Positions 24,642 through 25,379 are shown, numbered from the stretch's first letter. The stretch: 64,000 nt of DNA from Escherichia coli (GCA_902500125.1 GCA_902500125.1_4132.1); one strand, 5' to 3'. Notes: generated by a model not told the origin, from the letters alone. Program-made: numbers and translations.

Positions 24642-25379
24642 TTAGACTGAATTGTTAGGATAATATCTCCCACGTCCCCATATTATTCGCACAGCACCAC
24701 CACCAGCAGCCGTATAAGAAAAATTATCCCATATACTACCACCACCACCATACATCTTACCAGCACCACCACTACCAGCACCACCATTATATGAACCATC
24801 GTATCTACCGCCAATACCATTAGCACCTTGAACAATGATACCAGTACCACCACCCGTACCAATGAACGAGGTATTATAGAATGCACCACCACCACCGCCG
24901 CCGCCAGCACCATTTTCACCAGTGATTGCATCTCCGTTACCACCTTTACCAGTGTAGCCACCAGCACCACCACCAATGACTGCACCACCACTTACACCAG
25001 CGTTGCCCCCATTACCACCACCATCATTAATAGCGTTAGCAGCTTTCCCACCTAGTCCACCAACCCTATATTCACCAGTGAAGCTAACACATAGTTTTTC
25101 AGTTCCACGATATAAACCGTTTTCAACTGCTGTAGTAGTGTTGGGATGTGTAAGAGAAACACTTAAGTACTCACCACTAGTAACCGGAATATTATTACGC
25201 CACGATAAGCCGCCGCCAGCACCACGTTGACCACCCGGCGAAATAACACATACTGATATTTCGGTAACGCTAGCAGGAACTGTAAATTGTGTTGTTCCTA
25301 TTGTCGTGATTAATTGTTCACCATGTGGCTTATATTCAATTTCATTCCCGTACTTAATCATTCTTCCAAAAGGTAACAT
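24642..25379 (-). CDS. glycine-rich protein with MLPF N-terminal tag
   Basis: Track ORF; MLPFGRMIKYGN then long GGxGG low-complexity body; not Gly-X-Y. Confidence 0.6.
   Translation of the reverse strand: MLPFGRMIKYGNEIEYKPHGEQLITTIGTTQFTVPASVTEISVCVISPGGQRGAGGGLSWRNNIPVTSGEYLSVSLTHPNTTTAVENGLYRGTEKLCVSFTGEYRVGGLGGKAANAINDGGGNGGNAGVSGGAVIGGGAGGYTGKGGNGDAITGENGAGGGGGGGAFYNTSFIGTGGGTGIIVQGANGIGGRYDGSYNGGAGSGGAGKMYGGGGSIWDNFSYTAAGGGAVRIIWGRGRYYPNNSV

Follow-up and report, generated by a model that had tools for sequence, protein, structure and literature searches.

A stretch of 64,000 nucleotides filed under Escherichia coli (GCA_902500125.1), here called the window, carries a gene whose product begins with the same 12-residue tag as its neighbours and continues into a glycine-rich body. 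By its sequence, the window belongs to an Asteriusvirus-type jumbo coliphage (121Q, phAPEC6, G17 group). The locus raises the question of what a short N-terminal peptide does when it is shared by proteins of different folds, and whether it can be moved from one protein to another.

The array of tagged genes

Eight successive genes on the minus strand occupy positions 18562–27816, and all of them begin with MLPFxRMxxY[G/A]N. The DNA pattern of the tag has eight matches in the 64-kb window, against 0 expected according to 100 shuffles. All eight matches are start codons (19767, 21008, 22196, 23386, 24570, 25379, 26580 and 27816, minus strand). The array consists of seven RCC1-like propellers and one Gly-rich protein of 245 aa (24642–25379). 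The propeller genes are located at 26650–27816 and 25453–26580 (both starting with MLPFVRMFDYGN), 23395–24570 and 21087–22196 (both MLPFARMVKYGN), 22577–23386 and 19839–21008 (both MLPFGRMLKYGN), and 18562–19767 (MLPFPRMIKYAN). The seven propellers match PHROG 4219 with E values of 1e-43 to 1e-106, and also match the Pfam families RCC1/WD40_RLD. The AF2 model of one paralog (23395–24570) is a seven-bladed propeller, and Foldseek fitted it to UVR8/RCC1 with a TM score of 0.70 (E = 5e-18). The mutual identity of the propeller bodies in the window is just 22–37%, and the tag is retained throughout. Thus, no other part of any array gene comes close to the tag in conservation.

The region 18000–28000 was aligned to G17, Sharanji, 121Q, phAPEC6 and relatives. 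The identity is 93–97%, and the alignment is patchy with at most 52% of the region covered. This patchy coverage among related phages indicates that the tagged array varies from strain to strain.

The paralog at 22577–23386 has 269 aa, which is too short for a full seven-bladed propeller. It is kept in 121Q (gp238) and phAPEC6 (gp007). As phAPEC6 gp007 (30 kDa) was detected in virions, the 269-aa paralog is probably functional rather than a truncation artefact. Next to it, a gap of 380 nt (22197–22576) separates two tagged RCC1 genes and has no promoter cassette; 121Q places a 129-bp RCC1 fragment (gp237) at the counterpart of the gap. The arrangement suggests that the gap is a decayed cassette. 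Adjoining the tagged array on the opposite strand, about 20 small tandem paralogous genes (59–84 aa) are located at 28144–32114 (+). Many of their products begin with MN(K)EHKEFY and finish with ...LIYRY or LKLISM, and the 121Q counterparts (gp249–265) are annotated as hypothetical. A tRNA scan of the window gave no match.

The glycine-rich protein and the boundary of the tag

The ORF 24642–25379 on the minus strand starts with ATG and encodes the N-terminus MLPFGRMIKYGN. The tag corresponds to codons 1–12 (25344–25379, minus strand): ATG TTA CCT TTT (codons 1–4), GGA AGA ATG ATT (codons 5–8) and AAG TAC GGG AAT (codons 9–12). The preliminary description had stated that the protein starts like the propeller paralogs, and the alignment with the seven propellers bears this out. 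The identity is 75–92% over residues 1–12, 0–17% over residues 13–24 and 0–4% over residues 25–48. At the nucleotide level, the identity between the Gly-rich gene and the seven propeller genes is 81–92% over nt 1–36, and 22–42% over nt 37–72. A variable linker (codons 13–19, EIEYKPH; 25323–25343, minus strand) with 0–17% identity to the paralogs follows the tag.

According to the structure prediction, the Gly-rich body consists of a TNF-like β-sandwich (residues ~20–105; 25065–25322, minus strand) and a glycine-rich domain of the polyglycine lattice type (residues ~106–245; 24645–25064, minus strand), which ends in the conserved AVRIIWGxGRxYP. The AF2 model of the body shows a pLDDT of 93.6 and a pTM of 0.89. 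In contrast to the body, the N-terminus has a pLDDT of 57 for residues 1–10 and 77 for residues 11–20; the value for residues 1–10 of the RCC1 paralog is 48. The globular folds begin near residue 20 in both models, and the tag lies outside the fold. The conserved alignment of the Gly-rich family also begins at G20, and shows nine invariant and 35 near-invariant columns among 95 homologs. The glycine content is 28% overall and 38% in residues 100–245. The earlier reading of the body as a low-complexity domain with no RCC1 repeats thus holds for the repeats and fails for the low complexity, as the body is a conserved and confidently folded domain.

We considered a degenerate RCC1 propeller as the origin of the Gly-rich body, and rejected it. 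The protein matches PHROG 4474 (E = 9e-69), not PHROG 4219, and the AF2 fold is different from that of the RCC1 paralog. No Pfam RCC1 match was found at E ≤ 1, and the profile–profile comparison of the Gly-rich and RCC1 families by hhalign gave a probability of 0.2%. With the tag removed, BLASTP of the Gly-rich protein against the propellers gave only E = 0.01 at best. The Gly-rich protein has no Pfam or NCBIfam match, including none to PF21722 even at E ≤ 1, and the profile search against PDB sequences gave no match. Only the fold comparison was informative for the body. The model, as a monomer, superposes on the solved Pam3 gp24, a member of the TNF-like plus polyglycine fibre-tip fold, with just 17% sequence identity. 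[quoted passage not shown] According to the predicted structure, the Gly-rich body has a genuine, conserved fold, of the type found in fibre-tip adhesins.

Homologs of the Gly-rich protein are present as single copies with 84–98% identity in 18 Asteriusvirus-type phage records; the homologs include 121Q gp243 and CBB_144. In phAPEC6 (MK817115.1), the Gly-rich gene at 7325–8056 is unannotated, and the out-of-frame gp004 is called at 7716–8018. The out-of-frame ORF 24683–24991 of the window is the analogue of this spurious gp004. Together with the plus-strand ORFs 24828–25055 and 24976–25230, it was discarded as a by-product of the Gly codon repeats. As only gp004 is annotated, the phAPEC6 Gly-rich ortholog is undetectable in the published virion proteome.

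A variant with 80% identity to the Gly-rich protein was found on a Logan contig of 26.7 kb (P0002). It starts with MNKGGN-KIEYKPHGEQ, and exactly the 12 tag codons are missing; part of the Gly-rich domain is deleted internally as well. The variant may represent a naturally occurring allele that is tag-less or defective, or may have arisen in the assembly.

The tag on other folds

The set of tagged proteins was defined by M-L-P-F-x-[RI]-Φ-x-x-Y-[GA]-N beginning with the start codon and by a linker of variable sequence behind it, and the Gly-rich protein has both elements. Using a 26-residue tag query, tblastn matched 61 phage records. Among the 60 matches listed, all genomes are 310–386 kb in size, often with 8–15 sites per genome, and the hosts are Escherichia, Salmonella, Erwinia, Yersinia, Cronobacter, Serratia, Pectobacterium, Klebsiella and Xanthomonas. 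At the sensitivity of the search, the query had no match in RaK2 or K64-1. A scan of IMG/VR with the strict degenerate tag pattern gave only 121Q and CBB contigs and no new lineages.

The Pectobacterium phage CBB has no RCC1 gene and 11 tagged genes (CBB_144, 247, 536, 537 and 548–554). CBB_144 is the tagged Gly-rich protein, with 39% identity to that of the window. CBB_247, 548 and 551 are LamG/ConA-like, and CBB_550, 552 and 554 are Kelch propellers. No fold was assigned to the tagged CBB_536/537 and the homologous pair CBB_549/553; CBB_549 matches a weakly LamG-annotated protein (E = 1e-27) on the contig WCDA01000009.1. Among the tagged genes, the published paralog table of CBB relates only CBB_536/537 and CBB_549/553. 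GAP32 has a tagged RCC1 protein (GAP32_001) and a tagged LamG-like protein (GAP32_002). In the array of the Serratia phage BF, five RCC1 proteins, one LamG-like protein and one Gly-rich protein are all tagged. Hence the tag heads at least four unrelated folds: RCC1, Kelch, LamG-like and Gly-rich.

Conversely, the Gly-rich body is found behind other N-termini. In gp018 of the Salmonella phage PVP-SE1, it stands behind MFEMMLATSE. Among the 95 aligned Gly-rich homologs, five start with MLPF and 29 have starts of the M[LI]E[LM]L type; the remainder show other recurrent starts, some with FN3 or long N-terminal extensions. The tag and the body occur independently of each other. The tag was previously proposed to be a transferable module independent of the downstream fold, and the occurrence of at least four tagged folds together with untagged Gly-rich bodies supports the proposal.

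Other N-terminal modules were also detected. The RCC1 protein P0130 and the Gly-rich protein P0078 have a separate module of 43 aa in common, with 47% identity (E = 2e-10), and the similarity is limited to the N-terminus. The module surfaced through one of the few matches in the homolog search with one RCC1 paralog; P0130 sits on an environmental phage-like contig. As RCC1 and Gly-rich heads recur on a second, unrelated N-terminal module, the data suggest that the principle may extend beyond the Rak2-like clade. On the contig Ga0335316_1152812 (JGI 3300032327; L017), three RCC1 propeller genes and a sulfotransferase are located at 986–6254 by an endolysin/holin cassette, and one of the RCC1 proteins has the 43-aa module (…GIWTMDQANYYIANGTWP) as in Gly-rich proteins elsewhere.

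The above-mentioned WCDA01000009.1 (GCA_009015555.1) is a phiTE/rV5-like phage contig of ~150 kb, with the relevant genes at 2459–3109 and 10001–10693. Its LamG-like homolog of CBB_549 starts with MNEMLMLG, and its Gly-rich protein starts with MLEMLTVG. These starts are suggestive of M-x-E-M-L as a second lineage-specific tag in phages of ~150 kb, with a motif of only 4–5 residues. A 50-kb scan of PVP-SE1 gave no further M-x-E-M-L proteins.

In CBB (NC_041878.1), the region ~25466–25530 on the minus strand, just upstream of CBB_554, encodes ...VRIIYGDDRSFPNTLTNNQ*. These residues correspond to the conserved C-terminal end of a second member of the Gly-rich family, and no long ORF is left. The region, which borders the terminal repeat, is probably what remains of a pseudogene.

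The 5' cassette and the codons of the tag

In the window, the tag runs on upstream into a cassette of ~110 nt. The cassette is present in six of the eight genes, and consists of a hairpin (GCCAGTAC...GTACTGGC) with a T-run, an AT-rich box and the RBS AAAGGAGG. Upstream of the Gly-rich gene, all on the minus strand, the Shine-Dalgarno sequence AAAGGAGGG is read at 25384–25392. The AT-rich box GTATTAAATATAtTATAATGAAT with the T-run lies at 25393–25426 and, according to the upstream alignment, is shared with RCC1 genes, six of the eight array genes having it. The terminator-like hairpin GCCAGTACTTTGTACTGGC at 25427–25445 ends the preceding RCC1 gene. Another terminator-like hairpin (24614–24636, minus strand) is located directly downstream of the Gly-rich gene. 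With hairpins on both sides, the Gly-rich gene looks like a self-contained expression cassette. The AT-rich box was not detected as a sigma-70 promoter, and is regarded as a putative promoter by its position only.

The genes starting at 22196 and 23386 keep the tag without the cassette. The cassette carries an in-frame ATG (ATGAATAAAGGAGG...), at 24571–24588 and 21009–21074 of the window. As a result, longest-ORF callers prefix a spurious MNKGGN or a longer extension to MLPF in two genes. The true start of the gene 23395–24570 is 24570, not the in-cassette ATG at 24588.

The codons TTA-CCT-TTT are used in all eight window tags, which has a probability of P = 2.5e-8 given the codon usage of these genes. 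Most window tags have TAC, which is rare in the gene bodies (23% usage), and the codons of the tag hardly vary within the window, 121Q and phAPEC6. Thus, part of the conservation of the window tag reflects concerted evolution or a constraint at the nucleotide level. Which local variant of the tag is present depends on the phage and not on the body: in BF, RCC1 and Gly-rich proteins alike have MLPFPIIS-T, and in the window both kinds have MLPFxRMxKYGN. This tracking would arise because the 5' ends within one phage evolve in concert, as the sequence comparison indicates. The shared ~110-nt cassette is an obvious candidate substrate for recombination by which heads are added, removed or swapped.

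The tags of CBB and BF use synonymous codons (TTA/CTT, CCA/CCT/CCG/CCC, TTT/TTC and TAT/TAC), and the upstream DNA of their tagged genes is unrelated. The synonymous codons and the unrelated upstream DNA across genera indicate a constraint on the amino acids of the tag.

Virion association

Published mass spectrometry of CBB virions identified 55 proteins of 554 ORFs, and this set includes nine of the 11 tagged proteins (CBB_144, 247, 536, 537, 548, 549, 551, 552 and 553; hypergeometric P = 2.4e-8). The tagged Kelch proteins CBB_550 and CBB_554 were undetected. CBB_144 was identified by five peptides with 34% coverage, and some detections of tagged proteins are based on 1–2 peptides only. The CBB authors name CBB_144, 247, 536, 537, 551 and 552 as virion proteins which the sister phage GAP32 lacks, and all six of them carry the tag. 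Conversely, GAP32 has a single virion protein without a counterpart in CBB, the tagged RCC1 protein GAP32_001. In phAPEC6, six of the eight annotated proteins of the RCC1 array are present in the published virion proteome. The RCC1 proteins of PHROG 4219 are virion proteins in phAPEC6, GAP32 and the Vequintavirinae phage W70. For the Gly-rich protein, the virion data concern the CBB homolog only. The preference for a signal or anchor role over simple paralogy, expressed from the sequence of the locus beforehand, is supported by the present analysis.

The virions of phAPEC6 and CBB have unexplained hair-like fibres on the tail and capsid, and the hairs of CBB finish in 'tiny terminal globular structures'. 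GAP32 is reported to be hairless. As GAP32 nevertheless has tagged virion proteins, the acceptor of the tag need not be the hairs. phAPEC6 also has an inner body of unknown composition, and the authors of the phAPEC6 study proposed that the RCC1 proteins may act in this inner body or in DNA condensation.

Proposed mechanism and alternatives

We consider it probable that the tag and the linker form a docking peptide which fixes interchangeable ligand-binding heads to the virion. Residues 1–12 (MLPFxRΦxxY[G/A]N) and about seven variable linker residues would be a short, intrinsically unfolded peptide that incorporates small globular heads at one acceptor site common to all of them. Candidate acceptors are the 'hair' fibres of the capsid or tail and other decoration sites. 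The tag itself would mediate the incorporation. The tagged proteins would be located externally; their presence in virions fits an inside or outside location alike. The heads would be interchangeable cargo that may bind host or environmental ligands: in the window, seven RCC1 propellers and one TNF-like/polyglycine adhesin-type domain, and in relatives also Kelch propellers and LamG/ConA-like lectin folds. The near-identical terminator–promoter–RBS–tag cassettes of each phage would allow recombination to swap, duplicate and lose heads. A more specific form of this proposal, in which the peptide docks compact lectin-like heads (RCC1, Kelch, LamG or polyglycine adhesin) on the hair fibres of capsid and tail as a plug in a socket, and tandem, individually transcribed cassettes with identical 5' DNA shuffle the surface repertoire by recombination, seems to us possible, at somewhat under even chances. 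Other phage lineages may run plug-and-socket docking with different tags.

The main rival to the docking peptide is a capsid-targeting sequence like that of T4, by which the proteins would enter the prohead, be packaged together with the DNA and perhaps cleaved, and reach the cell by injection as effectors or DNA organizers. Such a sequence fits the unrelated bodies behind one short N-terminal tag, the hypervariability of the arrays among close relatives and the presence in purified virions, and phAPEC6 has an inner body for which the RCC1 proteins were nominated by its authors. However, the folds of the bodies are those of outer fibre or brush tips in the solved Pam3 gp24 (PMC9608196) and Bxb1 gp33 and gp29, and the other bodies are LamG lectin-like and propeller binding modules. 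Moreover, positions 13–19 are variable, with no conserved protease-site-like pattern after the tag, and the equation of RCC1 with DNA condensation is based on the eukaryotic family name only. We therefore regard capsid targeting as unlikely. The tag could instead be the target of a chaperone or modifying enzyme, or a self-association element (for example strand exchange into trimers), and not make the virion contact; the proteins would then be incorporated by another region, or would act in the cell and merely co-purify with virions. Pam3 gp24 needs a dedicated chaperone and trimerizes by its N-terminal part (PMC9608196), and the AF2 model of the Gly-rich protein shows weak β-strands at residues 6–9 and 12–15. 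On the other hand, propellers and LamG domains ordinarily fold without fibre chaperones, no chaperone-like gene is located beside the cassettes in the window, and the virion enrichment across three phages speaks against co-purification. This explanation is given slightly less weight than capsid targeting.

Two further explanations concern the 5' end as such and the export of the proteins. If the conserved 5' end were an expression element kept uniform at the nucleotide level by gene conversion, the peptide would have no function. The almost invariant tag codons of the window, 121Q and phAPEC6, including the rare TAC (P = 2.5e-8 for TTA-CCT-TTT), and the continuity of the tag with the shared terminator/AT-box/RBS cassette are what such an element predicts. 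The peptide, however, is kept through synonymous changes across genera and in CBB genes without shared upstream DNA; the genes starting at 22196 and 23386 are tagged without the cassette, and the tag persists on bodies that are 22–37% identical to each other. A purely nucleotide-level role is thus improbable. A secretion or lipoprotein signal, by which the proteins would be exported from the infected cell, is hardly credible: its N-terminal position and conservation across unrelated proteins are as expected, but the first ~35 residues have no hydrophobic core (maximum 10-residue Kyte-Doolittle mean ≤1.44), there is neither a lipobox Cys nor a twin-arginine (RR) motif, and the tag is only 12 residues long.

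In the literature searched, on jumbo-phage RCC1 proteins and Asteriusvirus cryo-EM, the tag is undescribed, and the φTE cryo-EM paper holds nothing relevant to it. The modularity of phage fibres and tailspikes, with a conserved anchor and a swappable tip, is known. A 12-residue peptide common to at least four unrelated single-domain folds is not among the well-known cases, nor is a tag that marks all six CBB-specific virion proteins and the one GAP32-specific virion protein which, as detected by mass spectrometry, distinguish the sister phages. If the docking peptide is correct, the misleading label 'DNA condensation / regulator of chromosome condensation' would be reassigned on dozens of jumbo-phage genes, and the globular ends of the phAPEC6 and CBB hairs, or the partners of these hairs, would have concrete candidates in the tagged proteins. 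The tag would also offer a simple way to identify the acceptor protein, and to engineer the host range of jumbo phages or the display of proteins on them. In the plug-and-socket form, components of the 'hairs' would be identified, and the tag would be a natural minimal tag for the display of foreign proteins on jumbo virions. The tag pattern is clear and statistically strong, and it bears on the open structural question of the hairs; the mechanism is a proposal.

Comparison with known systems

In the T4 capsid-targeting sequence, a short N-terminal peptide is conserved on otherwise unrelated hypervariable virion proteins (IPI, IPII, IPIII and Alt). A prohead-protease site closes this T4 sequence, which sends the proteins to the capsid interior. 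The window tag differs from it in that no conserved motif which could be a cleavage site was seen at positions 13–19, and in the fibre-tip or lectin-like nature of the bodies.

In the tailspike proteins of CBA120, G7C gp63.1/gp66 and the branched fibres of RaK2/K64-1, a lineage-specific N-terminal anchor is combined with an exchanged distal binding module. Several alternative modules are present per virion, as with the tagged heads. The anchors of these tailspikes and fibres are folded domains of roughly at least 100 residues on long trimeric fibres, whereas here a 12-residue peptide stands on compact single-domain proteins of 25–45 kDa, including propellers of the monomer type.

The seven neighbours of the Gly-rich protein belong to the phage RCC1-like 'DNA condensation' proteins (PHROG 4219; 121Q, PBECO4, GAP32 and W70), and the Gly-rich protein does not; the annotated function of this family is a name transfer from eukaryotic RCC1. 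The Gly-rich protein is linked by phmmer to many annotated members of PF21722 (Gly_rich_2), a family of phages and bacteria, with E values of 1e-17 to 1e-9, and shares the motifs GGGNGG, GGAGGY and AVRIIWG..R.[FY]P with them. It lies below the gathering threshold of 24.3 bits, which its homologs P0035 and P0038 exceed with 39.2 and 32.7 bits. Most members of PF21722 have other N-termini.

In the tips of Pam3 gp24 and T-even/S16 gp38, a TNF-like or β-helix stem is combined with a polyglycine glycine-rich domain. Unlike these systems, the tagged proteins lack a shaft, and a chaperone gene was not observed beside them. The attachment in Pam3 and gp38 is made by a helical bundle or domain, whereas the attachment proposed here is made by a peptide of ~12–19 residues.
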